Positions 6,983-56,438 of a DNA stretch of 64,000 nucleotides are shown here, one piece after another; positions within the stretch are counted from its first letter, which is position 1, and each line of letters opens with the position of its first letter. Position numbers and translations under genes: made by a program. The stretch spans positions 11,047 through 75,046 of the forward strand of contig JANOFO010000003.1 of assembly GCA_031413715.1 (NCBI GenBank). The letters run 5' to 3'. This DNA is from Minisyncoccota bacterium (GTDB taxonomy: Bacteria > Patescibacteriota > Minisyncoccia > Phycocordibacterales > UBA9973). Below the pieces are notes generated by a model, which made no database searches, was not told the DNA's origin, and worked only from the letters and a program-made list of their open reading frames with translations.

Positions 6983-8446
6983 ATGCCGAACATTGATGAA
7001 ATATTCTCTCTAATTCCCTCTATAGGTGCCAAAGGAAAAGCTATTATAAAAAAGGCGTATGACTTCGCGAACAAGGCTCATCATGGACAGCTCCGCAAGA
7101 GTGGCGAGCCGTACTTCACTCATGTCTTCAAGACTGCCAAGAACTTGGCGGATCTGGGTATGGGTCCGACCGTTATTACAGCTGGATTCTTGCATGATGT
7201 ATTAGAAGACACTAAAACAACAGAGGAAGAATTAACTAGAGAGTTCAATAAAGAAATTGTGTCTTTGGTCCAAGGTGTGACGAAACTTGGAACAGTCCGA
7301 TACAAAGGTATCGAACGCAATGTCGAGAATTTACGTAGATTTTTTGTATCGATGACGGAAGACTTGCGAGTGCTAGTGATAAAGCTCGCTGATCGACTCC
7401 ATAATATAGAAACCCTAGAGCATGTGCGACCTGATAAACAAAAACGCATCGCGCTTGAAACTTTGGAGGTTTATGCTCCTCTTGCCAATCGCCTATCGAT
7501 GGGCCGACTCAAGGGCCGACTGGAAGATGCAGCATTTAAATTTGCATATCCAAAAGAATACGAGCAAGTTCACAAAATGCTTCTTGCGAAAAAGGGAGTG
7601 GAGGAAAAATATTTAATCGAAGTTCGAGACGAGCTAATACAAAAACTAAAGAAAGATAGCATTGAAAATACGCATGTAGACTACCGACAGAAACATCTCT
7701 ACTCACTATGGAAGAAGCTAAAAAAGTATGACATGGACATCGGCAAGATATATGACATCTTGGCTTTGCGTGTAAAAGTAAACACAGTGGCAGATTGTTA
7801 CCATGTACTCGGGCTTATTCATGGAACATGGACACCACTGCCGAATCGCTTTAAAGATTATATTGCTACACCAAAATTAAACGGCTATCGTAGCCTGCAT
7901 ACGACGATATTCACTGGTACCGGAGGCATTGTGGAGATACAGATTCGCACTTACGAAATGCATAATGAAGCCGAGAATGGTATCGCGGCGCACTTTGCAT
8001 ACAAAGAAGGTAAAAATATAGATCTCGAACAATTTGAATGGGTACGGGAACTTCGTGACCTAAATGATATTAATGGAGACAAAAATAATCCTGAGAAATT
8101 TCTCAAGGACATCAAGATGGATTTCTTCAAGGATCGTGTATTCGTCTTTACTCCGAAGGGTGACATTATCGATTTGCCTGAAGATTCGAGCGTTATAGAT
8201 TTTGCTTATGCCATACATACAGATATAGGGAATCATGCCCAGGGTGCAAAGATTAATGGCAAGAATGTAGCTCTCCACACCAAGCTTCATACCAATGACA
8301 TTATCGAAGTCCAAGTAAATAAGAACGCAAATCCATCATCCAAGTGGCTTGATCATACAAAGACAGGACTTGCTAAAAAGCATATTAATGCGCACTTGAA
8401 ATCGCATAGTCTGCTTTCTAAATTCCTATCGTTTGGAAAGAGTTAA
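6983..8446 (+). CDS. rel: Short (p)ppGpp synthetase/hydrolase Rel (HD + synthetase + TGS domains; no C-terminal ACT/RRM)
   Basis: 487 aa. HD motif (HGQLRKSGEPYFTHV...GFLHDVLEDT). Synthetase block (RVKVNTVADCYHVLGLIHGTW...GYRSLHTTI). TGS domain (FVFTPKGDIIDLPEDSSVIDFAYAIHTDIG). Confidence 0.9.
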   Translation: MPNIDEIFSLIPSIGAKGKAIIKKAYDFANKAHHGQLRKSGEPYFTHVFKTAKNLADLGMGPTVITAGFLHDVLEDTKTTEEELTREFNKEIVSLVQGVTKLGTVRYKGIERNVENLRRFFVSMTEDLRVLVIKLADRLHNIETLEHVRPDKQKRIALETLEVYAPLANRLSMGRLKGRLEDAAFKFAYPKEYEQVHKMLLAKKGVEEKYLIEVRDELIQKLKKDSIENTHVDYRQKHLYSLWKKLKKYDMDIGKIYDILALRVKVNTVADCYHVLGLIHGTWTPLPNRFKDYIATPKLNGYRSLHTTIFTGTGGIVEIQIRTYEMHNEAENGIAAHFAYKEGKNIDLEQFEWVRELRDLNDINGDKNNPEKFLKDIKMDFFKDRVFVFTPKGDIIDLPEDSSVIDFAYAIHTDIGNHAQGAKINGKNVALHTKLHTNDIIEVQVNKNANPSSKWLDHTKTGLAKKHINAHLKSHSLLSKFLSFGKS

Positions 8447-28969: not shown

Positions 28970-29809
28970 TTATATGTCAAAAACACGCTTGGCATTTTGT
29001 ATTATGGCTTTCGCTACTTCAGCTTCCAACAAACCTTTAATTTCAGCAATCTTTTTGACCACCTCTCGTATATACGAAGGCTCATTGCGATTGCCTCGGT
29101 AGGGCACCGGGGACACATACGGCGCATCAGTCTCGGACATAATCATATCGAGAGGAGTATTCCGGATAACTTCATCATAGTCTTTGGTAAAAGTAATCAC
29201 ACCGGTAAATGACAAAGTGAACCCAAATTCAACAAATGCCTTGGCATCATCTATATCACCTGCGAAAAAATGCACATCACCTTTTACTTTGGCATGCAGT
29301 TTTAATATATTGAGTGCATCATGATATACATTCCGCTTATTATCATCTACGCTATGGCGTAGATGTAACATAAGAGGTTTATTAAATTCATTGGCAAGTT
29401 CAATCTGATCGATAAACGCTTTCTTTTGCTTCTCAATTGTCTCCTCTGTACATCGGAAGTAATCCAAGCCACACTCGCCTATCGCAACCACCTTCTTATC
29501 TTTTAGAAGTTCTCTGTAAGCATCCTTATCGAAACTCTCGCCTCGTGAGGTAAATTCTACTCCCCCCTCTCCAAGCTCTTTTTCGTCGTGATATGATGCT
29601 CCAGTATGTATCGGATGAAGGCCAATTATGGCGTAGACTCCTTCTTCATATTGATTTGCCATCTCTACCGCTTTCCGCGAAGTGTCGATCTGAGTACCGA
29701 CATTGATAACCCAAGTATCGCTATCAAATGCTCGTTTAATAACCTCATCTCGATCTTCATCAAACGCTTTGAAATTTACATGAGAGTGGATGTCGATGTA
29801 TTTAGGCAT
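28970..29809 (-). CDS. tatD: TatD-family metal-dependent hydrolase
   Basis: 279 aa. IDIHSHVNF.., ..GLHP.., ..GECGLDY.., ..HLR.., ..ETDAPY. Confidence 0.85.
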   Translation of the reverse strand: MPKYIDIHSHVNFKAFDEDRDEVIKRAFDSDTWVINVGTQIDTSRKAVEMANQYEEGVYAIIGLHPIHTGASYHDEKELGEGGVEFTSRGESFDKDAYRELLKDKKVVAIGECGLDYFRCTEETIEKQKKAFIDQIELANEFNKPLMLHLRHSVDDNKRNVYHDALNILKLHAKVKGDVHFFAGDIDDAKAFVEFGFTLSFTGVITFTKDYDEVIRNTPLDMIMSETDAPYVSPVPYRGNRNEPSYIREVVKKIAEIKGLLEAEVAKAIIQNAKRVFDI

Positions 29810-32350: not shown

Positions 32351-33622
32351 CTAGAATTTCAATATCTTTTCAAAGTTGGATTTATCTTTGAATGGGCCTA
32401 TAAGACACAAGTTTAGATGCTTGGTTTTGAAGATTGTTTTGGCCATTTTTTGGATATCAGCACTCGTGACTTTATTTATGTTTTTTATCTTATCTTCAAG
32501 ACCTTTAAGTTCCCTCTTCATCAATTCTTGCGTGCCATAAAAGCTTGCTATATCGTCTGTCGCTTCAAGAGAGAGCTTCATATTGCCACCAAGGAAGGAT
32601 CTGATCTTGGAAAGCTCGGACTCGCTTACTTTCTCTTTGGTTAATCTATTACATTCATTCAATATTTCTTTGATGACTTCAAGTGTACGTTCATTATTTA
32701 CACCTGCTGATATTTGAAACGCGCCAGTATCGAGCGAAGGATCATTATAAGCGCGCACATAGTAAGCCACGCCCATCTCTTCACGAAGCTTTATAAAGAG
32801 CCTAGAGCTCATCCCTGCCCCAAGGACTCCCGACAAAACGGAGAGAATTGCATTCCTAGGATCTTTGAGCGGAAATGTCCTGACTCCGAGCACAAAATGC
32901 GTCTGATCAGTAACCTTATGCTTAACTAGAACCTTTGGTTTACTTTGTGATATTCTTGTTTTTACTTTTTTCCCTTTCTTGCCGGTATGAACATTCTTAA
33001 AATGTTTAGCTGCTTCTTTATACACCTCGTCTTTGCTTACGCTACCTGCTACTACGATGACTGTCCCCTCTGCTACATAATGATCTTTTTTATATTTTAC
33101 GAAATCATCTCGCTCCATGGCTCGGACATTGTCTTTCGTGCCTGCAATATTGCGTCCTGCTGGTTGATCGCCATAAAGTACTTCTTGGAAAAGATCTTGT
33201 ACGTGGCGCGCTGGCATATCTTCGTACATATTTATCTCTTCTACTATGACCCCTTTCTCTTTTTGTATTTCAGCATCGGGGAAAGTAGAGTTAAGATATA
33301 TATCAGAAATTACATCAAATATCTTTTTGAAATTCTTGGAATCAGATTTGGCATAATACCCTGTCATCTCATGGTCAGTGAAGGCGTTATATTGCGCACC
33401 AAGACCATCGAGCTCGTGCGATATAGCCTGGGCATTTGGTCTCTTTATTGTGCCTTTGAAACACATATGCTCAAGAAAGTGCGATATACCATTTACCTTC
33501 TTGGTCTCATAATTTGATCCAGTACCAACAAGCACCAAGACTGTCACCGTAGGATTATCTTTCATCGGAATGGTAACAATCCGAAGCCCGTTCTTTAATG
33601 TTTTTTTATTTGGTTTAATCAT
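32351..33622 (-). CDS. M16-family zinc peptidase (pitrilysin/insulinase-like)
   Basis: 423 aa. Inverted zinc-binding motif HxxEH (GISHFLEHMCFKGT) and a downstream Glu region. Confidence 0.85.
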   Translation of the reverse strand: MIKPNKKTLKNGLRIVTIPMKDNPTVTVLVLVGTGSNYETKKVNGISHFLEHMCFKGTIKRPNAQAISHELDGLGAQYNAFTDHEMTGYYAKSDSKNFKKIFDVISDIYLNSTFPDAEIQKEKGVIVEEINMYEDMPARHVQDLFQEVLYGDQPAGRNIAGTKDNVRAMERDDFVKYKKDHYVAEGTVIVVAGSVSKDEVYKEAAKHFKNVHTGKKGKKVKTRISQSKPKVLVKHKVTDQTHFVLGVRTFPLKDPRNAILSVLSGVLGAGMSSRLFIKLREEMGVAYYVRAYNDPSLDTGAFQISAGVNNERTLEVIKEILNECNRLTKEKVSESELSKIRSFLGGNMKLSLEATDDIASFYGTQELMKRELKGLEDKIKNINKVTSADIQKMAKTIFKTKHLNLCLIGPFKDKSNFEKILKF

Positions 33623-34167
33623 AAATTTTCTTGTTTTTCTAACATCAATAGATCGTACCCTCTTTTAACTTCATCTTCTGGCAAAACACCCAGAGAAATA
33701 GTGAAATCTAGCAACTCTTTTCTAACTTGATCGATGTTCTCTTCTGCCATCTTTTCAACTTCAATAAATGTGCCGAGATCATCAACCTCATCAATACAAA
33801 CTTCGTATTCTCCCACCATTCCTTTCTGACGATTTTTTGTAACTGTGTTTGCAGTTTTATATCCCATCAAGAGTAGTGCTTGTTCTAGAGTTTTAGCATC
33901 TTGTATTTCTATCTCGTGCTCAATCTTAGAAAGGTTTTTGTGTTTTGAGAGATCCGCTTTTACTGTGAAAAAGAATTTGCCTTCATTTGTTTCTCTGATT
34001 CTCGGGAAATGATCATTCGTCAAATACTCAGCAACCGTACCAATTACTCTGGTATAAACCGTGTCTTTCTGTTTGACTTGTGGAGAAAAAACGCATCCAA
34101 GTGCTTCCAATTTTTCCATAATCTCTCTCTTGTCTCTAAGCTTGACCTTTATTTCAATTTCTTTCAT
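33619..34167 (-). CDS. CYTH-domain protein (CyaB/thiamine-triphosphatase-like triphosphate tunnel enzyme)
   Basis: 182 aa. N-terminal EIEIKVKL (the ExExK signature), then beta-strand-rich repeats containing acidic residues. Confidence 0.55.
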   Translation of the reverse strand: MKEIEIKVKLRDKREIMEKLEALGCVFSPQVKQKDTVYTRVIGTVAEYLTNDHFPRIRETNEGKFFFTVKADLSKHKNLSKIEHEIEIQDAKTLEQALLLMGYKTANTVTKNRQKGMVGEYEVCIDEVDDLGTFIEVEKMAEENIDQVRKELLDFTISLGVLPEDEVKRGYDLLMLEKQENL

Positions 34168-39078: not shown

Positions 39079-39540
39079 CTATTTTACCACATTTTTTGAT
39101 TCGTACTCATCTAAGTATTTTTGAGCTTGTTTGAGGGTTTGTATTCGGCCCTCCTTTTTAAATACGAATGTATTTCGAGCTTCCTCGTACGTAGCCCATT
39201 TGTAGTCGAGTATTTCCCCTTCTTGGATTTTCACAGTCTTATCTTTTACAATTCCCACAAAATATTTACAGATTTTATCGATTGTTTGTCCGTTCTTTAC
39301 AATCTCATAGCGTTCGTCTATAAGAGGAGCATCCAATAACTCTATATCAGCGATCCCAGTCTCTTCCACGAGCTCTCGCATAGCAATCACAAGGGGGTCT
39401 GTTTCCCCTTCTTCTCTTTTACCTTTAGGATAGCTCCAATTTTGATACTTTTCATCTTGAAAAAGAATGAGATATTTGTACTCTCCGTCTTCCTTAAATA
39501 CTGTTACTACTCCATAAGCCATGTGTTCAATATCGGCCAT
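39079..39540 (-). CDS. NUDIX hydrolase
   Basis: 153 aa. Nudix box (GKREEGETDPLVIAMRELVEETGI). Confidence 0.8.
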   Translation of the reverse strand: MADIEHMAYGVVTVFKEDGEYKYLILFQDEKYQNWSYPKGKREEGETDPLVIAMRELVEETGIADIELLDAPLIDERYEIVKNGQTIDKICKYFVGIVKDKTVKIQEGEILDYKWATYEEARNTFVFKKEGRIQTLKQAQKYLDEYESKNVVK

Positions 39541-39541
39541 A

Positions 39542-42500
39542 TTATTTTATATTTATCTTAAATACTAACTCATCAATATTTACTTCAGTTCCTTCATTCT
39601 CAGCGATTTTAATTTGCTTTGCACCCACGGTTTTTAGGAGTTCAACTTTAAATTTATTTATTATTTCTTGGCCATCTGTGTTAGTCGCAACTTCAAGCAC
39701 TACCACATCGCCAGGACTGAGTCCCTGTGCTTTACGCATGTCTTGAATCGCTCGGACAAGCTCGCGATACTGGCCTTCCTGCTTGAGCTCGGGAGTCATG
39801 TTTATATCAAGCTCTACCATAGATTCAATTGAATCATCCGCGCCAATCTCTTTTACATTCAATTCATCTTTAAGGATTTCAATATATTCTTCCTTGAGAT
39901 CTAGATTCTTGACTTTCAGCTGCCAGAGTGGCTGTCTGACTTTTATTCCCGCTTTCTGACGAGCTTCCAATCCTTGCGTGACTATTGATCGGACAGTCTC
40001 CATTTTGGAAAGCAAGTCATTATCAGCTTCGCTTCCTTTCGGCCACGAAGCAAGATGAACGCTTAATTCGTCTGCCTCACTTTTTAATTTCTGCCAAACA
40101 TCTTCTGCTGAAAAAGGCGCGAGCGGGGCTAGGAGCTTGGCTATCTCTTTGAGGGTAAAGTAGAGCGTCTGAAGCGCTTCGGTATCGTGATCCTTTATGC
40201 GGTCGCGAGAACGGCGCACATACCACGTAGAAAGATCGTCGATGAATTCACGGATCGCACGCGTTGGCTCGAGAAGCTTGTAGCTGTCCAAATTCTGAGT
40301 CACAGTATTCACCAGTCGATTGAGTTTAGCGATTATCCATTGATCGAGGATATTGCCTGAAGTCTTCTTCTCAACTTTCTCTAAATCCGTGTCTCTATAC
40401 AATTCATAGAACGCGAGCACATTGTAGAGCAAGTTGAATACTTTATTGTGGAGCTCAGCAACTGTCTTCTCGTCGAAGTTCTTTGATTCACCTGGCTGAT
40501 TGACCGAGTACATCCAGAGGCGGAGAGTGTCGACGCCATATTTTTCGATCATCACCCACGGATCAACAATGTTGCCGAGAGATTTTGACATCTTTTTGCC
40601 TTTCTCATCGAGAATATGCCCGAGGCAGATGACATTCTTGTATGCGCGGCCTCTGCCCATGAGCACTCCAACAGCATGGAGAGTGTAAAACCATCCGCGA
40701 GTCTGATCGATAGCTTCAGATATGTAATCGGCCGGGAAGCCTGTGCCATCTACCCATTCTTTATTCTCAAATGGATAGTGATCCTGAGCAAATGGCATAG
40801 CGCCCGAATCAAACCAGACATCCATAACTTCTTTGACCCGAGTTATTTCTTGCCCATCTTCGGACACGAGCTTTATCTGATCTATGTATGGTCGGTGAAG
40901 ATCGAGTTCGTATTCTTCGTTGTGAGGGACAGGCACGAAAGGCAGCGCACGTACTTCAGCATTCATAAATCTCTTGAAATCAGGAACAAAGACATGCGTA
41001 CCAGCCACCTGATATTCTTTGTTGTCCGGCATGAATAGTCCCGAATTCACATAGCATGCCCATGCCGGACCGCCGTGAGTGATGATCAATATATTCTTAT
41101 CTTTATATGTTTCCTCAAGTTCATACAGGACCTCAGCCGTTCTCTTTTGAACATCTTTGAGTGATTCCCCGCCTCCGATCTTCTCTGTGAACCATTTTAG
41201 TCCTGTGTTCGTATATACATATTTGTGGTATGTATTCCAATCCTTATTATCAAAATCACCAGGGTTTATTTCCTGCAATCGCGGATCATATTTGATAGCA
41301 TCAAGTGACATACTCAAAGTTTCTGCCACAAGATCCGCAGTTTCTTTCGTACGAGTAAAGGGAGACGAAACGATGATATCAATATTGTTAGCTTTGAGCA
41401 GAGAAGCCTGCCTTCTCACTTCTTCTTTTCCTTCTGGAGTCAGATTATCAGTCGCCTGGTTTTTATAGCTCACTAATTCATGCAAGTTACCTTCCGTACC
41501 GCCATGGCGCATGACAAAATATTTGTTGCCGGACTTCTTGGTCTTTTTTTTCATTTCCTCAAGACTGCCGATGACTTCAAGCGTGCCATCTGCCGTCTGC
41601 CATATCGGAAGCGGTGTACCCCAGTAGCGCTCGCGTGATATTGCCCAATCTTTTATATCCTTGAGCCATTCACCGAAACGCCCGTCACGGATATGTGCTG
41701 GCTCCCAATTAATTTCTTTATTCTGATCTATTAACTGCTTTTTGATCTTCTCATCAGACATGCGGATGTACCATGAATCGCGCGCATAGTAGATAAGCGG
41801 GGTCTTACATCGCCAGCAATGAGGGTATGAGTGCTCATATTTTTCCTTTTTGAAAAGCAATCCTCGATGAGCCAAGTCTTTGATAATATCCACTGCAACT
41901 TCTTCATCCTTGACGAATCTACCTTCTAGGAAATCTGTGCCCTTAACAAAATGACCTGTATCATCTACTGTATGGAATTTGGGAAGTCCAACTTTTGTGC
42001 CAAGCTCAAAGTCTTCCTGACCATACATAACCGCAGTATGAACAATGCCGCTACCATCAGTCGTCGTTACGAAATCAGCAGTATAAACTTTGTATGCGTT
42101 CTGTAATTTTTCATCGCCTTTATTAAGCTCCCCAAGATATGGATACAGAGGCTCATATTCGAGGCCAATAAGTTCATTTCCTATAATATCATTATGTACA
42201 ATTTCGATTTTTTGATCTTTAAAAAGTTCAGGAACTCTTGCGGTTGCAACAACATACAACTCTTGTACTCCTTCAACACGCAGAGCTGTGTAAGAAATAT
42301 CCTTACCAACCGCCAAAGCAACATTACCTAGAAGTGTCCAAGGGGTTGTTGTCCAAGCTATGAGATAAACAGTGTCCTTTGTCTCGTTACCCTTGCCCCA
42401 TTTCTGTCCCGGCTTTAAATGAAATTTCGCATATACTGACAGATCCTTGTCATCTTGGTATCCTTGCGCAAGTTCATGTGACGAAAGAGCCGTCCCACAG

Positions 42501-43057
42501 CGTGGACACCAAGGCAAGACCTTGTAGTCCTTATAGAGCAACTTCTGCTCGTTTACTTTCTTTACAACATTCCATACTGACTCTATATATGTATTGTTAT
42601 ATGTGATGTATGGATTATCTTTATCTACCCAATACCCTACTCGATCACGAAATGTATACCAAAGATCAATATATCTCCAAACGCTTTCGCGACATTTCTG
42701 ATTAAATTTAGCAATGCCATATTCTTCTATATCTTTTTTTGATGTAAGGCCAAGTTCTTTTTCTACTTGAAGTTCAACTGGAAGACCATGCGTATCCCAA
42801 CCGCCTTTTCGGCCCACATGATATCCTTGCATCGTCTTGTATCTCGGAATAGCATCTTTGAAAGATTGAGGCTCTAAATGGTGTATTCCTGGCTTGCCAT
42901 TGGCTGTCGGCGGGCCATCGTAAAAAACAAACTCTCCTTTCGGCGAATCCTTCGCGAGTGTCTTCTGGAAAATACTATTCTCTTTCCAGAATTCTAAGAT
43001 TTTCTCTTCTCGGAGCGCAGCTTCTGATTTCTTGTTTTGTATTTCTTTATCTTCCAT
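39542..43057 (-). CDS. ileS: Isoleucyl-tRNA synthetase containing an inserted histidine-phosphatase (phosphoglycerate-mutase family) domain (~aa 505-715)
   Basis: 1171 aa in a single ORF. IleRS blocks: HIGH-type motif (PTANGKPGIHH), editing/CP1 region, WCWRCKTP, KMSKS (KMSKSLGNIVDP), C-terminal anticodon-binding and junction domains. Between ..ISRERYWGTPLPIWQTADGTLEVIGSLEEM and ..LDLHRPYIDQIKL...DVWFDSG lies a ~210-aa segment with the three PGAM hallmarks: FVMRHGGTEGN, SSPFTRTKETA and LIITHGGPAW. Confidence 0.9.
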   Translation of the reverse strand: MEDKEIQNKKSEAALREEKILEFWKENSIFQKTLAKDSPKGEFVFYDGPPTANGKPGIHHLEPQSFKDAIPRYKTMQGYHVGRKGGWDTHGLPVELQVEKELGLTSKKDIEEYGIAKFNQKCRESVWRYIDLWYTFRDRVGYWVDKDNPYITYNNTYIESVWNVVKKVNEQKLLYKDYKVLPWCPRCGTALSSHELAQGYQDDKDLSVYAKFHLKPGQKWGKGNETKDTVYLIAWTTTPWTLLGNVALAVGKDISYTALRVEGVQELYVVATARVPELFKDQKIEIVHNDIIGNELIGLEYEPLYPYLGELNKGDEKLQNAYKVYTADFVTTTDGSGIVHTAVMYGQEDFELGTKVGLPKFHTVDDTGHFVKGTDFLEGRFVKDEEVAVDIIKDLAHRGLLFKKEKYEHSYPHCWRCKTPLIYYARDSWYIRMSDEKIKKQLIDQNKEINWEPAHIRDGRFGEWLKDIKDWAISRERYWGTPLPIWQTADGTLEVIGSLEEMKKKTKKSGNKYFVMRHGGTEGNLHELVSYKNQATDNLTPEGKEEVRRQASLLKANNIDIIVSSPFTRTKETADLVAETLSMSLDAIKYDPRLQEINPGDFDNKDWNTYHKYVYTNTGLKWFTEKIGGGESLKDVQKRTAEVLYELEETYKDKNILIITHGGPAWACYVNSGLFMPDNKEYQVAGTHVFVPDFKRFMNAEVRALPFVPVPHNEEYELDLHRPYIDQIKLVSEDGQEITRVKEVMDVWFDSGAMPFAQDHYPFENKEWVDGTGFPADYISEAIDQTRGWFYTLHAVGVLMGRGRAYKNVICLGHILDEKGKKMSKSLGNIVDPWVMIEKYGVDTLRLWMYSVNQPGESKNFDEKTVAELHNKVFNLLYNVLAFYELYRDTDLEKVEKKTSGNILDQWIIAKLNRLVNTVTQNLDSYKLLEPTRAIREFIDDLSTWYVRRSRDRIKDHDTEALQTLYFTLKEIAKLLAPLAPFSAEDVWQKLKSEADELSVHLASWPKGSEADNDLLSKMETVRSIVTQGLEARQKAGIKVRQPLWQLKVKNLDLKEEYIEILKDELNVKEIGADDSIESMVELDINMTPELKQEGQYRELVRAIQDMRKAQGLSPGDVVVLEVATNTDGQEIINKFKVELLKTVGAKQIKIAENEGTEVNIDELVFKINIK

Positions 43058-43314: not shown

Positions 43315-44055
43315 TTAGATAATACTTCCAACCTTAAGACCAAGCTTGTCGCTTGCTGATTCATTTTGGACTATGATCTCAAGGAAGCGCTTTTCTCCGA
43401 AACCAGAACTCCCTCGAGTCAATGCAGGCTTGCCGTCTTTTGGAACATCAGCTAGGCGCTCGTAAAATTCGAGATCCTTCATGAAATGACTTTCATTCTC
43501 GATAAGGGTTGTCTTGCAGTTGCCGAAGTTATCTACCCTCCATACGAAGTTTTTTTCTCCGAAATCTTCGACATCTACTTCTTTTGCAGGTACATCTTCT
43601 CCTTCGCTAAGCCATTTGGCAAGATACGGTAGGTACTCAAAGCTTCTAAATTGTGAATTGGAAATCCGCAAGGCTTCATCGTGATCGAGAAACTTACTGC
43701 ATACTTCAAACACATCTGTTTCATAAACCTTGGAGAATAGCCCGAGCTTCTTGGCAAGAGGAAAGCAATTCGGCGTTCCTAGTATCAGCAATTTCCCGAG
43801 TCTGCAAAAGCAAAATGGAATACCATTTAGGTACTTTTCCTTATTGCCACGCAAGGCAACATTGATGGAAATAATGCCAGGTGCATCCTTGTAGGCATCG
43901 ATTGTATCGATAAGATCACCCTGAGCCTTTAGGCTCGATTCTACTCCGCAAAAGTTGGTGGAAATATTTTCAAGAAGACCATGGTAACGTGCTACTTGGC
44001 GCGTGCGGGCATTGTCGTCGAGGCAGTCATTGATGATTGTGACAAGTTGTGACAT
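43315..44055 (-). CDS. Hypothetical protein, possibly a divergent DUF62 / SAM hydroxide adenosyltransferase (SalL/FlA-like)
   Basis: 246 aa. C-terminal VWRVDNFGNCKTTLIENE resembles the DUF62 C-terminal ID.FGN..TN motif. A mid-region TPNCFPLAKKL weakly resembles RDIFAPVAAHL. The N-terminal motif is poorly conserved. This is weak, memory-based similarity. Confidence 0.35.
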   Translation of the reverse strand: MSQLVTIINDCLDDNARTRQVARYHGLLENISTNFCGVESSLKAQGDLIDTIDAYKDAPGIISINVALRGNKEKYLNGIPFCFCRLGKLLILGTPNCFPLAKKLGLFSKVYETDVFEVCSKFLDHDEALRISNSQFRSFEYLPYLAKWLSEGEDVPAKEVDVEDFGEKNFVWRVDNFGNCKTTLIENESHFMKDLEFYERLADVPKDGKPALTRGSSGFGEKRFLEIIVQNESASDKLGLKVGSII

Positions 44056-46380: not shown

Positions 46381-46953
46381 TTATATTTTAATTATCTCTT
46401 TGACTTTCTTTACAACTTGCTTTGGTGACAAGCGAGTATTATCTATCTCTATATTATACTTCACCGGGGCAGGAGTATTCCAATCTTTTTCTTTCTTCAT
46501 TATTTGCCTCATTATCTTAGGATCAGCAAGTTTGTTCAATTTCTTCCTTGATTTCCCTGATACACGCTTGATAAGAGCATTTCGATCAGCAGTCAGGTGA
46601 ACGAAATACGCTTTCCCACCGGCCTTCTCAATAAATGATTGAATTTTCTTCACAAACATAGGATCACTTAAACCTGTCAATGAAACATAATCTGCCGAAT
46701 ACGCATGAGTAGTTACAGTATTCAAATGGCCTTTTGAGATTTCTTCAAATATAGACAATCTCAATGTTTCAACTAAACGATTGAGGTTTAGGGTGTCTCT
46801 CTCAAAAAGTTCTCTGGCAATATCGTAAGTATGGTGATTATGGAAAAATTTATATCCAGTCTGTTTTTGGAATTCTTTAGCTACTGTATATTTACCTACA
46901 GCAAACGGGCCATAGAATGTGACAACATTGAATTTGGGTTTTTTAGTTTTCAT
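46381..46953 (-). CDS. P-loop NTPase / small-molecule kinase-like protein
   Basis: 190 aa. Walker A (TFYGPFAVGKYT). It has the size and layout of the AAA_33 / nucleoside-kinase fold. Substrate unknown. Confidence 0.5.
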   Translation of the reverse strand: MKTKKPKFNVVTFYGPFAVGKYTVAKEFQKQTGYKFFHNHHTYDIARELFERDTLNLNRLVETLRLSIFEEISKGHLNTVTTHAYSADYVSLTGLSDPMFVKKIQSFIEKAGGKAYFVHLTADRNALIKRVSGKSRKKLNKLADPKIMRQIMKKEKDWNTPAPVKYNIEIDNTRLSPKQVVKKVKEIIKI

Positions 46954-47483
46954 TTAAAATTTACTGAACATTTCTAATATAGGAGGGAAAAATAGAGAAG
47001 TGACAAATTTACTTTTTTCTTGCTCAGAAAGATTTTTAATACTTTCTATAGAATACTCTTCAAATCCAGCTCCATCTTCAGGTTCGATTTTTAAATCGAA
47101 AATTGTACCAGAAAAATTATAGCCAAAAAAATATCGAAGTGCATTATTTATAGTTTTTGTTTCAGGATCTTCATTTCGAAAAAGAACCCTACCAAGATAT
47201 TTAAGATTATCAATACTTTCCTCAATACCAGTTTCTTCTCTTAATTCGTTAATCGCTGCTTGTTCAATAGTTTGATCAAGTTCAACATGGCCACTTACGG
47301 AAAAGGTTAGTTTGCCAGGATGCGTTTCTTTAGTAATTGAACGTTTCTGGAAAACAAATTTATCATTAGGTAACTTTATAAGAACAAATACCTCTGGGTG
47401 CAGTAGCCCTTTTTGGTGAACAACGGATCTTTCTTCAGAACCTATTACATCTCCACGCTCATTAATAAGAGGTATTTTCATAA
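46954..47483 (-). CDS. NUDIX hydrolase (the ORF track extends it upstream to 47613 with a hydrophobic N-terminus)
   Basis: Nudix box (SGHVELDQTIEQAAINELREETGIEE). Start taken at MKIPLINERGD. Confidence 0.7.
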
Positions 47484-47554: not shown

Positions 47555-47974
47555 TTACTCGTCACGAAAGTCGAGCCAAAAAGGACAATAATTACCAACT
47601 GGTTGTCCGTCAATATTTATGGGCATAGTGCCGCTGCCAATATTGAAGATTTTTTTCGCAGGATTGCCATCATTCTCATTACAAGCAAGATGACAATCTC
47701 CTTTACCAGTAGCATACACTGAGCCCATTTCTCCCCGGTAGAAACAATTTCTACATGTTCTTTGTACAACCCCATCTGTTGGAGTATATAATACTTCCGT
47801 AGGTGTTAATTCTTTTTTTGGATCATCTTTCGTTTCTGCAGCGATGAATGGCTGCCCGTTAAGGAGACGCAAGCCTCCTTTTTTAACAGTAAGACCTTTT
47901 TTCATAACAATAAGTTTATTTTTTGATTTTGAATATTCAGTTACATTATAGCACGCGAAATCCCATGTTGTCAA
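47555..47974 (-). CDS. Hypothetical Cys-rich small protein (probable start MKKGLTVKKGG.. at about 47905)
   Basis: ~116-139 aa. CRNCFYRGEMGSVYATGKGDCHLACNENDG...YCPFW, with 5-6 Cys suggesting a metal site. No family recognised. Embedded in the nucleotide operon. Confidence 0.4.
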   Translation of the reverse strand: MTTWDFACYNVTEYSKSKNKLIVMKKGLTVKKGGLRLLNGQPFIAAETKDDPKKELTPTEVLYTPTDGVVQRTCRNCFYRGEMGSVYATGKGDCHLACNENDGNPAKKIFNIGSGTMPINIDGQPVGNYCPFWLDFRDE

Positions 47975-48677: not shown

Positions 48678-49109
48678 CTACTTTATCGCATCGTAGTAAT
48701 TCTTGCCAGTTTTGTATGATTCAATAGCAAGACCTGTCTGTATAAATACAGGATCAGGTAACTTACCAAGATCATACCATCCCCAATCTTCAAGTTTTTC
48801 AGGTTCGAGTACCTGCGGTTCTCCGCTTTCCCAATCAGCAAGTAAGACTATATTTACATAATGCTTTGGAGCATAGTGAAAAATATTTCCTACATGCAAG
48901 AATCGAATATTTTTAATCTGAATTCCTGTTTCCTCTAATGTTTCACGTCGAGCACAATCTTCAAATGACTCCATGTACTCTAGATGTCCACCTGGAAATG
49001 CATATTCACCTATGCCATGGGAACTTTTCCGCTTACCCATCAAGACCTTGCCATCTTTCAAGATCATGATCCCCATACCAACTCTTGGTCTTTGATTTTC
49101 TGTATCCAT
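48678..49109 (-). CDS. NUDIX hydrolase
   Basis: 143 aa. Nudix box (GGHLEYMESFEDCARRETLEETGI). Confidence 0.8.
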   Translation of the reverse strand: MDTENQRPRVGMGIMILKDGKVLMGKRKSSHGIGEYAFPGGHLEYMESFEDCARRETLEETGIQIKNIRFLHVGNIFHYAPKHYVNIVLLADWESGEPQVLEPEKLEDWGWYDLGKLPDPVFIQTGLAIESYKTGKNYYDAIK

Positions 49110-49110
49110 A

Positions 49111-49518
49111 TTATTTTAAAAACTTATTTAGAATTATTTTTACATCATTCAAATCTTTATACTCTTCTACTTGGAATGCACTGTTGCCACTCACCATAGC
49201 AGAAAGTGATTTATCTGGGACATGTCTGTAGAGACAGAGTACTTTTTTATGTAGATTCTCGGCAATCCCGAGCTCATAGCCTACGCCAAGCGATGGAGTC
49301 GTAACTTCGGCCACTATCATGTCGGAATTTTTGAGCCATTTCATATCTCTATTGTATATAAACTCTGCAGCCTTTTGTTCCCCTTTTTCAGATATGCTAG
49401 CATCACCAATATGCTCAGTCAGAATTTCTCCGTAACTTTTCAATATCTCTATAATCTGAACATACAACTCTCTATCATCTCGCCCTCCCCGTATTGAACC
49501 TGCAAAGTATATTTTCAT
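49111..49518 (-). CDS. 2'-deoxynucleoside 5'-phosphate N-hydrolase (DNPH1/Rcl family)
   Basis: 135 aa. KIYFAGSIRGGRDDRELY...ILTEHI...VAEVTTPSLGVGYELG...SLSAMV...FQVEEY aligns closely along its length with my memory of the animal DNPH1/Rcl sequence, including the catalytic E in VGYELG. Confidence 0.75.
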   Translation of the reverse strand: MKIYFAGSIRGGRDDRELYVQIIEILKSYGEILTEHIGDASISEKGEQKAAEFIYNRDMKWLKNSDMIVAEVTTPSLGVGYELGIAENLHKKVLCLYRHVPDKSLSAMVSGNSAFQVEEYKDLNDVKIILNKFLK

Positions 49519-49523
49519 AATTA

Positions 49524-50087
49524 CTATTCTAAATTAAATTTGTTTAAAAATAAATCGATCTCCTTATGGAAAGCTTCCAAGTCAGAATTATTCAGAATAG
49601 AATAATCTGCAAGTTTCAGACATTCAAAAACTCGCGGTAAATTTGGCAGAGAATTCTCAGTTTTTTCATTTTGAATAAATTCTTCTAATGTTGTTGCTTC
49701 TCCTAATTTATTGCGATTTACGCTTCTTTCAAATCGAACTTTTGTATCAGCTTCAATTACAAGCAATGCAAGGTTTGAATTCGCACGCATATATTCTATT
49801 GTGCCCAAAATTCGCATGCCAGTTATTATCCCTCTATCACCAGTGATTCTATTTAGAGCAAGTCTGGCAAAATGATCAGGACCCTTTTCCTTAACAAGAC
49901 TATTGCCTATCTTGATGAGATTTTCTCTCGTTGGTTCGATATTGTCTTCCTTTGCTAGATCTCTCAATATCTCGCTTATTGGGGAAGAAGGTATTTTTAA
50001 TTTTTTCGAAATATATTCTGCTGCCGTATCTTTACCAGAACTAATAGTACCAATAATACCAATTATAGTTTTTCTTCCTTGGTTCAT
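49524..50087 (-). CDS. dNMP kinase-like P-loop kinase (phage T4 gp1-like SGKDT motif)
   Basis: 187 aa. IIGIIGTISSGKDTAAEYI matches the T4 gp1 motif GVKRSGKDTTADFI. The overall size is also similar to gp1. Confidence 0.5.
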   Translation of the reverse strand: MNQGRKTIIGIIGTISSGKDTAAEYISKKLKIPSSPISEILRDLAKEDNIEPTRENLIKIGNSLVKEKGPDHFARLALNRITGDRGIITGMRILGTIEYMRANSNLALLVIEADTKVRFERSVNRNKLGEATTLEEFIQNEKTENSLPNLPRVFECLKLADYSILNNSDLEAFHKEIDLFLNKFNLE

Positions 50088-50088
50088 A

Positions 50089-50550
50089 TCATTTCGTTCC
50101 TAACTCTTTTAAAGCTTCGGTTGCGAGGTGCAAAACATTAGGACGAAGGTTCATATTGTTAAGCTCCTCCTTGCTGACCCAACGTGTTTCAGTAAGCTCG
50201 TGCTCGCTTTCCGAATTTAAAACCTTATCGGAATCCGTTGTAGCAAAATATACAAGAACAATATGTTCGTGTGTTTCATTTACCAAATGTTTTCCTAAGT
50301 ATCGAGGAGACGGCAGATAAGAATAATCGTCGTCATCAAAAATAGGAACTTCGCTTTGTATCTTAATATCTAATCCGACCTCTTCTTTCACTTCACGATA
50401 CGCTGCCTCGATGGGATCCTCATCAAGTTCTATATGCCCGCCAACAGAAAGCCAAATTTTATACTTGTCATGCATCCGAAGAAGCACCTTGTCCTTGTAA
50501 ACAATGAATACTTCTACTGTATAGTCGACTTTTTCGTGAAGGTGGGGCAT
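50089..50550 (-). CDS. NUDIX hydrolase
   Basis: 153 aa. Nudix box (GGHIELDEDPIEAAYREVKEEVGL). Confidence 0.8.
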   Translation of the reverse strand: MPHLHEKVDYTVEVFIVYKDKVLLRMHDKYKIWLSVGGHIELDEDPIEAAYREVKEEVGLDIKIQSEVPIFDDDDYSYLPSPRYLGKHLVNETHEHIVLVYFATTDSDKVLNSESEHELTETRWVSKEELNNMNLRPNVLHLATEALKELGTK

Positions 50551-50551
50551 G

Positions 50552-50980
50552 TTAATTAATCATACCAATAATCTCGCTAATATACTTATCTAAATTCTCT
50601 AGTGTTTTTAATTCTTCAGCCAAGAACCACTCATATTTATCATGCTCATCGCTAAGCTTTACTTTCCCTTTAGCCTGTCCTACATATGTAAGCCGGACGA
50701 CATGCTTATCTTCCTTTAATATATCTTGAGCAGAGAGGAGCTTTGGTTCCCCAACAAGTTCAAGCCCTGTTTCTTCAAGAACTTCTCTTTTAAGATTCTC
50801 TAAAAGAGAGACTCCTATATCTATTCGTCCTCCTGGAATATCCCAGATATCACGATCTTTTATTTCCGGATATTTCTCTTTAGAACGCTGAAGCAGGAGA
50901 TAGTTCCCTTCTTCATTTCTCAATAAAATTTTTACGCCAACTTGGAGATTCATATAAATAGAATATAACAAAAACAACAT
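50552..50980 (-). CDS. NUDIX hydrolase, first gene of the long minus-strand nucleotide operon
   Basis: 142 aa. Nudix box (GGRIDIGVSLLENLKREVLEETGLE). Confidence 0.75.
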   Translation of the reverse strand: MLFLLYSIYMNLQVGVKILLRNEEGNYLLLQRSKEKYPEIKDRDIWDIPGGRIDIGVSLLENLKREVLEETGLELVGEPKLLSAQDILKEDKHVVRLTYVGQAKGKVKLSDEHDKYEWFLAEELKTLENLDKYISEIIGMIN

Positions 50981-51003
50981 CAGAAATCCACCAGATCCAA
51001 AAG

Positions 51004-51037
51004 TGACACAAATTAGGCCATGGCGTAATTTGTGTCA
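51004..51037. promoter_or_regulatory. 34-bp palindrome 1 (TGACACAAATTAGGCCA|TGGCGTAATTTGTGTCA), a probable operator in the divergent promoter region
   Basis: 16 of 17 positions are self-complementary. Centred on CCATGG. It lies between the minus-strand NUDIX operon start (50980) and the plus-strand wHTH gene start (51066). Its right arm overlaps a candidate -35 for the plus-strand gene. Confidence 0.6.
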
Positions 51038-51065
51038 GTGTTGCTACAATGATAGAATAAGTTAT

Positions 51066-51545
51066 ATGTCTATAGTTGGGGAAATTTTGAAAGAATTGTG
51101 GGAAACTGAACATACCTATAAAGGTACTAAGGTAAACATCTTCGGTATCCCTCGTTTTAAAAAGTACTCCAAACGAACTTTGCGCTCTACTATCGACAGG
51201 CTTGCCAAAAAAGAAATAATTCAAAAAGAGATAGCTGGCATCGTCCTTTCAAAAAATGGTAGGCGTTATGTCAAAAGGAAGATGGACTCGCTTCACTCAT
51301 TTGAAAAACCTGACTATGCTTCTCTGTCAAAGAATCTCGTCGTTATGTTTGATATTCCTACGGAAAGAAAAGCGGAGCGAGAATGGCTGCGTTTCCATTT
51401 AAAAAAGTTTGGTTACATTATGATACAAAAAAGTGTGTGGGTTGGGCCTTCTCCTCTACCGAAAGAATTTAAAGATTATATTAAGAGCATTAAACTTCAT
51501 AATTGCATAAAAACATTTAAGCTGGCTAAACCATACAAAACATAA
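51066..51545 (+). CDS. Small winged-helix + Cas2-like (VapD/Cas2 fold) protein, a putative regulator
   Basis: 160 aa from the ATG at 51066. The ORF track's upstream GTG start only translates the palindrome. N-terminal K/R-rich wHTH-like region (..RSTIDRLAKKEIIQKEIAGIVLSKNGRRYV..). C-terminal LVVMFDIPTERKAEREWLRFHLKKFGYIMIQKSVWVGP resembles the Cas2 core (..VYDI...R...L...G.R.Q.SVF..). Confidence 0.45.
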   Translation: MSIVGEILKELWETEHTYKGTKVNIFGIPRFKKYSKRTLRSTIDRLAKKEIIQKEIAGIVLSKNGRRYVKRKMDSLHSFEKPDYASLSKNLVVMFDIPTERKAEREWLRFHLKKFGYIMIQKSVWVGPSPLPKEFKDYIKSIKLHNCIKTFKLAKPYKT

Positions 51546-51643: not shown

Positions 51644-52222
51644 TTATAGATATTCTATTAATTGCTCATAGACTTCTGGTCTGTTCACTCGCAATGTTTC
51701 CCCTGTTTTGGTTGGAAGCTTAGCCATAGAAAGACCATATTGGTTGGCAAATGCAATAATTTTGTCCTCGGCAGCTTTGATCTCTGATTCATCGTTAACC
51801 AAAAGTTCTATTTCGCACGCTTTGAGTCCTGTTTCTATCTCGTCAATATCAATTAAAAATCCTTCTTTCTTATACTTCGTACGGTGAGTAGTAAAGCTTA
51901 CAAGTTCTTCTAAATTTTTCTTTACTTCAGTTTCTAAATAACTATCTGTATCAAATCCTAGTTTCTCGAGAATTTCTTTCTCATTTGTAATTTCTATAGC
52001 ATGCTTAGCTTTTTCGTTAGTGTCAGTTCCTATCTGAATCTTGAGTTCATAACTGCCATCTCGTTTACGCAATTTTATTTTCGCTTCACTTTTAAAATAA
52101 TCAAATGTGGGAGTATCGTAATAAATATCTCGAATTGATTTGTCTTCAACAAATTCTGCTCCTTCAAGCAAAGCTTTGAGCTGTTCATATGTTGGTTGAA
52201 ATTTCTTTTCTATCTCAATCAT
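51644..52222 (-). CDS. CYTH-domain protein (triphosphate tunnel metalloenzyme), co-operonic with glyA
   Basis: 192 aa. N-terminal MIEIEKKF (ExExK) and alternating acidic beta strands (..ELKIQIGTDTNEK.., ..EIELLVNDESE..). Its start overlaps the glyA stop (ATGA). Confidence 0.55.
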   Translation of the reverse strand: MIEIEKKFQPTYEQLKALLEGAEFVEDKSIRDIYYDTPTFDYFKSEAKIKLRKRDGSYELKIQIGTDTNEKAKHAIEITNEKEILEKLGFDTDSYLETEVKKNLEELVSFTTHRTKYKKEGFLIDIDEIETGLKACEIELLVNDESEIKAAEDKIIAFANQYGLSMAKLPTKTGETLRVNRPEVYEQLIEYL

Positions 52223-55616: not shown

Positions 55617-56438
55617 TTAAAGAGCTTTAATCACTGACGACAGGTAACTACCAAGCTGTCCCGAGAATTGCTTGGCCTTTTTTATATTATCTTCATGCGA
55701 ATGAATTCCAACAGCGTCGTTTGTAATAAACGCAAGTGAGAGAACTCTCGTTTTGTAGAGGGCTGCAACAGCAACTTCTGGTATTGTACTCATGCCTACT
55801 GCTTTGGCACCTGTATATGATAAGGCTAATTTGTCATATTTGCGACCTTCGAAGTTAGGGCCGAGCACCATAACATAGCCACCGGTGACAATCTTTCCGT
55901 TATACGCTTTCCGATTTTGGAGAGCGAGTTTCATTAGATCCTTGGACAATACATCGTCCGGTGAAGCGAATTCACTCACCCATAGAGGAAGTGGTACGTA
56001 CAGACTGACAAAGCCATCAATAACAACTAGGCACCCAGGCTCCAGTTTACTCTTTGGTAGTGCTCCTGCTGCACAGGTTGTAATCAACGTCTTAACACCT
56101 AATTTCATTAAAATTTCAGTTTGCAACCTAACCATCAAATAAATTGCTAGGCTACAAGGCTCTTCGTTCAGATGGATCCGTCCCTGTAGAACAATCACTT
56201 CTTTTCCTGCAACAGTACCATGGACAAACCTTCTGTTGTGGCCCTCTAACTTTCCCAATCTTGAAAAGCCAGGAACCTTTTCAAAGTTGATATACTGTGG
56301 ATTTTCAATCTTCAACTTATCCCCCCAACCTGTTCCCAAAATGATGCCAAGCCGAATGGGTTTTTTAATTTTAAATTTTTTACGTAAAAAATCAGCAGCT
56401 TTTGTCGCGGCAATTTCGCGGTTTCTATTTCTTTTCAT
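55617..56438 (-). CDS. Purine nucleoside phosphorylase / MTA phosphorylase (PNP-UDP family, trimeric type)
   Basis: 273 aa. ..LGIILGTGWG.., ..HNRRFVHGTVAGKEVIVLQGRIHL.., ..TTCAAGAL.., ..MSTIPEVAVA.. Confidence 0.8.
   Translation of the reverse strand: MKRNRNREIAATKAADFLRKKFKIKKPIRLGIILGTGWGDKLKIENPQYINFEKVPGFSRLGKLEGHNRRFVHGTVAGKEVIVLQGRIHLNEEPCSLAIYLMVRLQTEILMKLGVKTLITTCAAGALPKSKLEPGCLVVIDGFVSLYVPLPLWVSEFASPDDVLSKDLMKLALQNRKAYNGKIVTGGYVMVLGPNFEGRKYDKLALSYTGAKAVGMSTIPEVAVAALYKTRVLSLAFITNDAVGIHSHEDNIKKAKQFSGQLGSYLSSVIKAL

Follow-up and report, generated by a model that had tools for sequence, protein, structure and literature searches.

The 64,000-nucleotide stretch analysed here (the window) is part of contig JANOFO010000003.1 from a Minisyncoccota bacterium, and it holds a deoxynucleotide and thymidylate gene island of approximately 10 kb. 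At the centre of the island lie an orthologue of the hydrolase DNPH1 (also called Rcl) and a gene for a P-loop kinase-like protein, here named K187 (Table 1). The original prediction for this locus, made from sequence alone, described a DNPH1-type hydrolase beside a kinase like gp1 of phage T4, the two acting together to discriminate between canonical and modified pyrimidine deoxynucleotides. Both open reading frames (ORFs) are found where that prediction placed them, on the minus strand, and encode 135 and 187 amino acids (aa), respectively. They are separated by 5 bp and sit within a minus-strand run that reads NUDIX, NUDIX, kinase, DNPH1, NUDIX, Tmk, with intergenic gaps of 0–6 bp. The larger island covers the entire thymidylate branch (Dcd, Dut, ThyX, SHMT, Tmk) plus hydrolases that clean the nucleotide pool. 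The NUDIX enzymes that were said to flank the two genes are also present, one directly downstream and two directly upstream, and match PF00293 with E values of 1e-16 to 1e-21. An identical contig is found in a Logan assembly (L001), from which gene calls were taken. The G+C content of the window is approximately 36–45%, and the nearest relatives of its proteins carry the names Paceibacterota, Parcubacteria or Patescibacteria, which places the DNA in a bacterium of the CPR (Candidate Phyla Radiation).

Table 1 Genes of the island and related features of the window. The two central genes are listed first; positions are counted from the first nucleotide of the window.
Feature	Position	Strand	Basis
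DNPH1/Rcl orthologue (putative 2'-deoxynucleoside 5'-phosphate N-hydrolase), 135 aa	49111..49518	-	PF05014, rat/human DNPH1 structures, residue conservation
K187, UPF0200/SSO1041-type P-loop (d)NMP-kinase-like protein, 187 aa	49524..50087	-	AAA_18/AAA_17, SSO1041 profile, AF2 model and Foldseek, phrog_139, PADLOC dCTPase
dUTPase (Dut), 140 aa	45956..46378	-	PF00692 E 5.5e-23; TIGR00576 109 bits, above cut-off
K190, P-loop kinase-like protein, 190 aa, atypical Walker A GPFAVGKYT	46381..46953	-	Sub-threshold CoaE, Cmk and dNK matches only
NUDIX hydrolase, IDI/YfcD-like	46954..47481	-	PF00293 E 1.8e-12
Small Cys-rich ORF, 116 aa, no family match	47555..47905	-	Own consensus promoter and hairpin terminator
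Thymidylate kinase Tmk, 230 aa	47981..48673	-	PF02223 E 2.4e-18
NUDIX hydrolase, 143 aa, MutT-like	48678..49109	-	PF00293 E 1.8e-21; mutt TIGR00586 E 1e-9 (below cut-off)
NUDIX hydrolase, 153 aa, weakly NudB-like	50089..50550	-	PF00293 E 3.9e-16; NF006961 E 9.5e-12 (below cut-off)
NUDIX hydrolase, 142 aa (gene call in L001: 133 aa), first gene of the run	50552..50980	-	PF00293 E 7.3e-19
PaaX/Cas2-like putative regulator, 180 aa, divergently transcribed	51003..51545	+	PaaX_M E 9.5e-14
CYTH-domain (triphosphate tunnel) protein, 192 aa	51644..52222	-	PF01928 E 9.2e-18
Serine hydroxymethyltransferase (SHMT), 425 aa	52219..53496	-	PF00464 E 8.5e-158
Flavin-dependent thymidylate synthase ThyX, long and divergent, 451 aa	53665..55020	+	PF02511 E 4.4e-18; phrog_36506 E 2.8e-14
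dCTP deaminase (Dcd), 178 aa	55025..55561	+	PF22769 E 7.2e-37
PNP/UDP-family phosphorylase (PNP_UDP_1), upstream	55617-56438		
TatD DNase, within the window	28970-29809		

DNPH1 is a dimeric N-glycohydrolase that splits a deoxynucleoside monophosphate (dNMP) into free base and deoxyribose 5-phosphate via a covalent Glu-linked intermediate. Judged by its sequence, the 135-residue protein is a genuine full-length orthologue of this enzyme. It matches PF05014 well above the cut-off (E 3.2e-18, 66.4 bits against 28.8), and residues 2–133 of 135 align with the solved structures of rat Rcl (2KHZ, E 1e-35) and human DNPH1 (E 2e-34), while the best nucleoside 2-deoxyribosyltransferase chain reaches only E 0.11. 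The motifs by which the original prediction recognised the enzyme (KIYFAGSIRGGRDD, LTEH, VAEVTTPSLGVGYELG and SLSAMV) are all found in the protein, as is the catalytic Glu.

The functional residues of the human enzyme were taken from PMC10603095, and conservation of their equivalents was counted over 32 prokaryotic relatives of the window protein. In human DNPH1, Y24, D80 and E104 form the catalytic triad and E55 activates water; H56 touches the base O2, I29 and I76 act as base clamps, S98 and S128' hold the phosphate, and R30 reaches O4 via water, with D73 stabilising R30 (PMC10603095). We see the equivalents of Y24, I29, R30, E55, H56, I76, D80, S98, E104 and S128 in the window protein as Y4, I9, R10, E35, H36, I54, D58, S76, E82 and S106, respectively. 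The triad Y4/D58/E82 is kept, with Tyr and Glu invariant and Asp present in 31 of the 32 relatives, and the phosphate-binding S76 and S106 (the latter in SLSAM) are invariant (32/32). Residues L33-T34-E35-H36-I37 are the equivalent of the LTEHV motif, and LTEH occurs in every one of the 32. Arg is found at the R10 position in 27 of these relatives, and the other listed functional residues are invariant or nearly so. From the states of the Tyr and the two Ser residues we would expect a 2'-deoxynucleotide hydrolase and neither a nucleoside deoxyribosyltransferase nor a ribonucleotide glycosidase, and the phosphate-binding serines argue specifically against a nucleoside transferase. This reading relies in part on what is already known of Rcl and MilB. 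Prokaryotic DNPH1 orthologues are routinely labelled 'nucleoside 2-deoxyribosyltransferase' in databases, which is probably a misnomer because these Tyr and Ser states fit a deoxynucleotide hydrolase.

The adjacent K187 has the P-loop GTISSGKDT, containing the SGKDT signature that the original prediction took as a mark of the T4 gp1 family. Pfam returned only generic AAA_18 and AAA_17 matches. The gp1 family itself (DNMK, PF21448) scored 13.2 bits against a cut-off of 27.1, over residues 8–45 only, and its matches were weak in 33 of 34 members of the K187 family (best 5.6e-7). With a T4 gp1 query that was 100% identical to GenBank X03016, hhalign aligned the K187 family over 37 columns around the P-loop (77% probability) and BLASTP aligned 19 residues. 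A profile built from the 34 family members matched SSO1041/UPF0200 (3LW7/3H0K) in the PDB over its full length (E 8e-26), and T4 gp1 (1DEK) at positions 6–42 only. An AF2 model of K187 (pLDDT 91.6) gave AMP-bound SSO1041 (3LW7) as the top Foldseek match (E 6.8e-10, TM 0.78/0.85, root-mean-square deviation 2.4 Å), ahead of adenylate and UMP/CMP kinases, and 1DEK was not among the top 50. Membership of the T4 gp1 family was rejected on these grounds. What stands of the earlier label is a remote superfamily link: K187 has a full-length match (E 3.6e-15, residues 1–185 against profile positions 78–264) to phrog_139, 'deoxynucleoside monophosphate kinase', and T4 gp1 belongs to the same PHROG (1.8e-65, profile positions 83–261). 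Of the two families that had been proposed for profile searches, PF05014 was matched above its cut-off and DNMK below it.

Other kinase identities were also considered and rejected. CoaE (PF01121 19.2 bits against 27, residues 8–33 only; TIGR00152 22 bits against 65.6), Cmk, shikimate kinase and phosphomevalonate kinase were all sub-threshold or weaker structural neighbours than SSO1041. A generic deoxyribosyltransferase next to a dephospho-CoA kinase, the outcome that the original prediction had named as speaking against it, is not what we found, given the phosphate-binding Ser residues of DNPH1 and the sub-threshold CoaE matches. K187 scores 67.5 bits against PRK08356 (E 1.3e-18), below the equivalog cut-off of 189, which indicates a related subfamily rather than an equivalog. 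It further matches the kinase domain of the PADLOC dCTPase over the whole 187 aa (E 7.5e-13) and NF041025, an anti-phage dCTP deaminase N-terminus (E 4.8e-5, 22 bits against a cut-off of 400). Overall, these comparisons indicate that K187 is a UPF0200/SSO1041-type protein of the nucleoside monophosphate (NMP) kinase fold, remotely related to phage dNMP kinases; 'dNMP-kinase-like' is a reasonable functional guess and 'T4-gp1-like' overstates the kinship. The family comprises 811 representatives at E <= 1e-30 (50%-identity clusters). Some members (P0203, P0244) carry an N-terminal fusion to a canonical adenylate kinase, and others are tandem duplications; these architectures fit a nucleotide kinase with a specificity other than that of Adk.

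DNPH1 orthologues form 7220 protein clusters at E < 1e-5, and two narrow peptide patterns place them in at least 578 species genomes from the Candidate Phyla Radiation (CPR), DPANN, Bacteroidota, Desulfobacterota, methanogens, Chloroflexota and others. The enzyme is common in CPR and DPANN genomes and is not rare in small ones; the original prediction's view of the pairing as unusual in a tiny genome is not confirmed. Genomic context was surveyed by calling ORFs in 80 retrieved orthologue loci (given L numbers here, as are the other related loci) and comparing them with the window island proteins and with each other. The only neighbour families found within 3–4 kb in more than 4 of the 80 loci were Tmk, Dut, SHMT, a NUDIX and a syntenic arginyl-tRNA synthetase (ArgRS). 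Tmk is the commonest neighbour across genomes (11–15 loci), with Dut in 10–14, SHMT in 7–10, NUDIX in 6–7, and ThyX, ThyA and Dcd in 2–4 each. These neighbours often abut DNPH1 at 2–60 bp, as with Tmk at 2–3 bp (L002, L028, L065), Dut at 2–9 bp (L003, L010, L028), SHMT at 4–34 bp (L004, L020, L032) and ThyX at 44 bp (L065). The observed frequency of a neighbour within approximately 6 genes of DNPH1 is 14–19%; by our own estimate, chance would give approximately 1% for a gene present once among approximately 700–1000. The DNPH1 island loci are from CPR genomes plus one Woesearchaeota. We conclude that DNPH1 has a systematic neighbourhood of thymidylate-branch genes in CPR and DPANN genomes, and that this is worth recording. 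In a Woesearchaeota locus (L051, 4857-7085, minus strand), a 742-aa Tmk-ThyX fusion lies approximately 900 bp from DNPH1, with a second Tmk-like ORF in between.

The context of the kinase was assessed from six looked-up homologues, which gives seven contexts when the window is counted. Five of the seven lie in an island of SHMT, NUDIX, kinase, Tmk and Dut, and four of the six homologues do so without an intact DNPH1 (L082, L084, L088, L089). The order in L082, L084 and L088 is SHMT, (CYTH), NUDIX, kinase, NUDIX, Tmk, (NUDIX), Dut, ArgRS. In L089, an 86-aa DNPH1 remnant (7240-7500, plus strand) is seen 0.7 kb downstream of the kinase homologue and before a frameshifted Tmk, reflecting either gene decay or an assembly error in that metagenome-assembled genome. 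Kinase-like genes are found 1–2 kb from DNPH1 in L003, L010 and L012, and most DNPH1-containing islands have no kinase, among them L002, L020, L028 and L046. Direct adjacency of the two genes occurs in this genome only, among the loci compared. The thymidylate synthase of the island is either ThyX or ThyA with dihydrofolate reductase (DHFR), and the deaminase is either Dcd or a dCMP deaminase. In short, the island is a conserved CPR functional neighbourhood with interchangeable parts (Dcd, ThyX/ThyA, SHMT, NUDIX, kinase, Tmk, Dut, ArgRS), and DNPH1 and the kinase are optional members of the same pathway neighbourhood, not an obligate pair. As kinase islands mostly lack DNPH1 and most DNPH1 islands lack the kinase, the proposed active discrimination by the pair is unsupported as a two-enzyme unit. 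The two genes of the window are nevertheless predicted to be co-transcribed. A tblastn search with both proteins against 50,697 phage records returned no match, which argues against a close phage origin.

We consider it fairly probable, from residue conservation and gene neighbourhood, that the DNPH1 orthologue of this thymidylate island has the role demonstrated for the human enzyme and destroys 5-hydroxymethyl-dUMP (hmdUMP) or similar aberrant analogues of dUMP and dTMP before they reach Tmk, and that its UPF0200-type neighbour is a (d)NMP salvage kinase and not one half of a pair. In such a pathway, Dcd and Dut would supply dUMP, ThyX with SHMT would methylate it, and Tmk would phosphorylate the dTMP. 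The NUDIX and CYTH enzymes would cut unwanted (d)NTPs back to monophosphates, and DNPH1 would irreversibly destroy a monophosphate that is not to be re-phosphorylated, the best candidate being hmdUMP or a similar 5-substituted dUMP. A source of the analogues might be scavenged or oxidised DNA; side reactions of thymidylate synthase are another possible one. K187 probably serves dNTP salvage as the kinase of at least one (d)NMP, and would, perhaps together with K190, return acceptable dNMPs to the pool; nothing points to the specificity for hydroxymethyl-dCMP that had been suggested for it. hmdUMP occurs in phage DNA, and a scavenger might take such DNA up. Human DNPH1 prefers hmdUMP as its substrate (PMC10603095; PMC10483697), and acid trapping of a ThyX intermediate is known to yield hmdUMP as a derivative (PMC3498832). 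The policing of modified dUMP by the window enzyme would be compatible with both its conserved residues and its thymidylate-pathway neighbourhood, and the recurrence of such neighbours fits the removal of hmdUMP-like dUMP/dTMP analogues.

Several points weigh against this reading. Mammalian DNPH1 slowly hydrolyses canonical dNMPs too, so the conserved residues are no proof of hmdUMP specificity, and any release of hmdUMP by ThyX in vivo is hypothetical. Approximately 60 of the 80 DNPH1 loci have no conserved context. Human D73 aligns to a 2-residue gap in the non-conserved shielding loop of the window protein; the adjacent E52, which is acidic in 21 of 32 relatives, may approximately substitute for it. 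The transcription-unit boundaries derive only from gene spacing and consensus scans. Finally, the crystal ligand of SSO1041 is AMP and not a dNMP, and K187 may act on ribonucleotides.

DNPH1 could instead serve bulk catabolism and salvage, splitting the canonical dNMPs of scavenged DNA; phosphoribosyltransferases would turn the free bases into ribonucleotides, and the deoxyribose 5-phosphate would yield carbon and energy. Modified bases would then have no special role. CPR organisms are scavengers, and a PNP_UDP_1 phosphorylase and a TatD DNase both lie within the window. It is established that rat Rcl takes all canonical dNMPs, as PMC10483697 also states, although characterised DNPH1 is slow on these substrates (PMC10483697). 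The recurrent neighbours of DNPH1 are genes of the thymidylate branch, however, and not deoC, phosphoribosyltransferases or nucleases, and the equivalents of H56 and R30, which are base contacts for hmdUMP, are kept; we therefore regard bulk catabolism as unlikely. An exchange of bases at the dNMP level, which would rebalance or diversify the dNMP pool by transfer of deoxyribose 5-phosphate, is suggested by the phage enzyme DmtZ, a DNPH1-fold protein that lies next to or is fused with a Dut-like protein and moves the deoxyribose 5-phosphate of dAMP onto the Z base (PMC12884076). DNPH1 does abut Dut in several loci. We find this highly improbable for the window protein, which is closest to hydrolases (rat Rcl, E 1e-35, against E 0.11 for the best nucleoside 2-deoxyribosyltransferase chain) and keeps the equivalent of E55, the water activator of the hydrolytic step.

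The other two alternatives assign DNPH1 and K187 to a joint task. They could make up a dedicated filter in which, in the manner of phage T4, a gp1-like kinase is specialised for certain dNMPs, modified or otherwise selected (hm-dCMP, dTMP, dGMP). The shared SGKDT P-loop, the joint membership of phrog_139, the 5-bp spacing in the window and the presence of a kinase homologue with DNPH1 in one island in L003, L010, L012 and L089 all favour this. We nonetheless judge such a filter improbable: DNMK is below threshold, the gp1 similarity covers 37 residues and 1DEK is outside the top 50 structural neighbours, neither protein has a tblastn match in the 50,697 phage records, and adjacency is seen in this genome only, with the kinase lacking DNPH1 in L082, L084 and L088 and DNPH1 lacking the kinase in L002, L020, L028 and L046. 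An anti-phage role by nucleotide depletion, wherein the kinase-like protein would sense or bind dNTPs while DNPH1 and NUDIX deplete deoxynucleotides upon infection, is favoured by the matches of K187 to the PADLOC dCTPase (E 7.5e-13) and, in NCBIfam, to the N-terminus of an anti-phage dCTP deaminase (E 4.8e-5), and by those of the NUDIX genes to PADLOC PDC-S07. However, K187 ends after the kinase fold at 187 aa and has no deaminase domain, DNPH1 has no PADLOC match, and no mobile-element genes are seen among the annotated ORFs within approximately 20 kb on either side. PADLOC yielded only the dCTPase kinase domain and a generic NUDIX candidate, and a defence system was rejected because the genes belong to a housekeeping operon that also holds Tmk, Dut and ArgRS and whose synteny extends over several CPR genomes; such a role is very unlikely. 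All four alternatives fit the context and residue data less well than sanitation of the thymidylate branch by DNPH1.

A broader version of the sanitation reading would make the DNPH1 of CPR and DPANN symbionts an ancestral proofreader of the thymidylate branch, removing hmdUMP-type by-products of ThyX/ThyA or of scavenged DNA ahead of Tmk, and the UPF0200-type kinase a broad-specificity dNMP kinase that rebuilds dNTPs directly from scavenged DNA as phages T4 and T5 do. We hold this to be doubtful; if true, UPF0200 and prokaryotic DNPH1 would each receive a first function. DNPH1 is a cancer drug target whose physiological substrate was recognised only recently. That ultra-small genomes repeatedly place it next to Tmk, Dut, SHMT and thymidylate synthase offers independent evolutionary support for a role on dUMP/dTMP analogues, and the island enzymes are simple bacterial proteins with which such a role could be tested. 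In turn, organisms that depend on scavenged nucleotides may have their dNMP salvage step in the UPF0200-like kinase family, which is a candidate for it. Both protein families are already known, and prokaryotic DNPH1 homologues are auto-annotated. What appears worth recording is the thymidylate neighbourhood of DNPH1, the consistent island membership of the uncharacterised UPF0200-like kinase, and the correction of the gp1 label; in a literature search of partial coverage we found no paper describing any of the three, no characterisation of prokaryotic DNPH1 orthologues, and nothing on UPF0200 or on DNPH1 in Patescibacteria.

Promoters and terminators were sought by consensus scans. An extended -10 sigma-70-like promoter (TTGACA-18-TATAAT, 12/12 with TG extension) lies on the minus strand at 47974-47945, after the Tmk stop, and a hairpin with a 14-bp stem and T-run comes behind the Cys-rich ORF at 47533-47501. 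Three units may be read from these signals: one from NUDIX to Tmk, with DNPH1 and the kinase inside (50980 to 47981); one of only the Cys-rich ORF (47905 to 47555); and one of NUDIX, K190, Dut and ArgRS, the last of which follows Dut in the window (47481 to 44244). The division is tentative, since promoter-like and terminator-like sites are overall no commoner than in shuffled sequence. Related islands (L082, L020, L056, L064) carry the divergent PaaX/Cas2-like gene too, a recurrence suggestive of dedicated island regulation.

Matches to PF00293 were above threshold for four NUDIX genes of the run and for one more at 39079-39540. The translations of the 143-aa and 153-aa proteins show an intact Nudix box (GX5EX7REUXEEXGU). 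The 153-aa gene adjoining the kinase is kept in L082 and L084, where an orthologue of the 143-aa gene comes after the kinase. For the IDI/YfcD-like NUDIX, the true start is likely the ATG at 47481, as homologues begin at MKLPVV. The CYTH gene between SHMT and NUDIX is kept in L084, L028 and L056. In all, we count five NUDIX and two CYTH-domain genes in 64 kb (33619-34167, 39079-39540, 46954-47481, 48678-49109, 50089-50980, 51644-52222), an unusually heavy nucleotide house-cleaning load for a very small genome.

The ThyX of the island, at about twice the usual length, has RHRAIIQ in place of the classic RHRxxS, and phmmer found no match to any solved ThyX structure; the long form also occurs in L082 and, fused to Tmk, in L051. 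A role as a hydroxymethylase was considered and rejected. Ordinary dTMP synthesis is the simple reading, because this is the only thymidylate synthase of the island and is replaced by ThyA and DHFR in related ones. K190 had no informative match in PDB, PHROGs or PADLOC, and is kept in at least L020 and L089. The Cys-rich ORF had no match in Pfam, NCBIfam, PHROGs or PADLOC, and its slot is variable in related islands, being filled by DUF1599 or by a 122-aa ORF on the opposite strand. Elsewhere in the window, the architecture at 39542-43057 (minus strand) is also found in the related CPR genome L082, and a 246-aa protein at 43315-44055 (minus strand), present in the identical Logan contig, has a weak C-terminal match to SAM hydroxide adenosyltransferase (DUF62).

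Among known systems, the window DNPH1 most resembles the human and rat enzymes (2KHZ, 4FYH, 8OS9, 9DA1), with which it shares full-length homology, a core of the same size, the triad, LTEH, both Ser residues, R30 and the hydrophobic base clamps. It differs from them in being prokaryotic, in lacking N- and C-terminal extensions, in a shielding loop that is 2 residues shorter with an ambiguous D73 equivalent, and in its operon with Tmk, NUDIX and kinase genes. The hydroxymethyl-CMP/CMP N-glycosidases MilB and BlsM of Streptomyces antibiotic pathways have the PF05014 fold and the chemistry in common with it and likewise recognise a 5-hydroxymethyl pyrimidine nucleotide, and in MilB a Glu replaces H56 for cytosine and R23 binds the phosphate (PMC10603095). 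The window protein, unlike MilB, has the DNPH1 states Tyr4, His36 and Ser106. In work attributed to Sikowitz et al. in 2013, MilB is said to act on ribonucleotides and to carry Phe in place of the catalytic-site Tyr. Phage DmtZ is likewise a DNPH1-fold enzyme that is genomically coupled, in a nucleotide-pool-editing cluster, to a gene of the dUTPase family (DutZ), but it is viral, dAMP-selective and a transferase to 2-aminoadenine (PMC12884076).

For the kinase, T4 gp1 (1DEK) shares with K187 the SGKDT P-loop, the helix that follows it and the match to phrog_139, but it has approximately 55 extra residues that K187 lacks, and 37 residues can be aligned. Sulfolobus SSO1041/UPF0200, an 'adenylate kinase-related protein', is alike in full-length profile match, predicted fold and length; it is archaeal, has approximately 22% identity to K187, and was crystallised with AMP while itself biochemically uncharacterised. 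The anti-phage dCTP deaminases (PADLOC dCTPase, NF041025) have a kinase-like N-terminal domain that is homologous over all 187 aa, whereas K187 stands alone, without a deaminase domain and in a housekeeping context.

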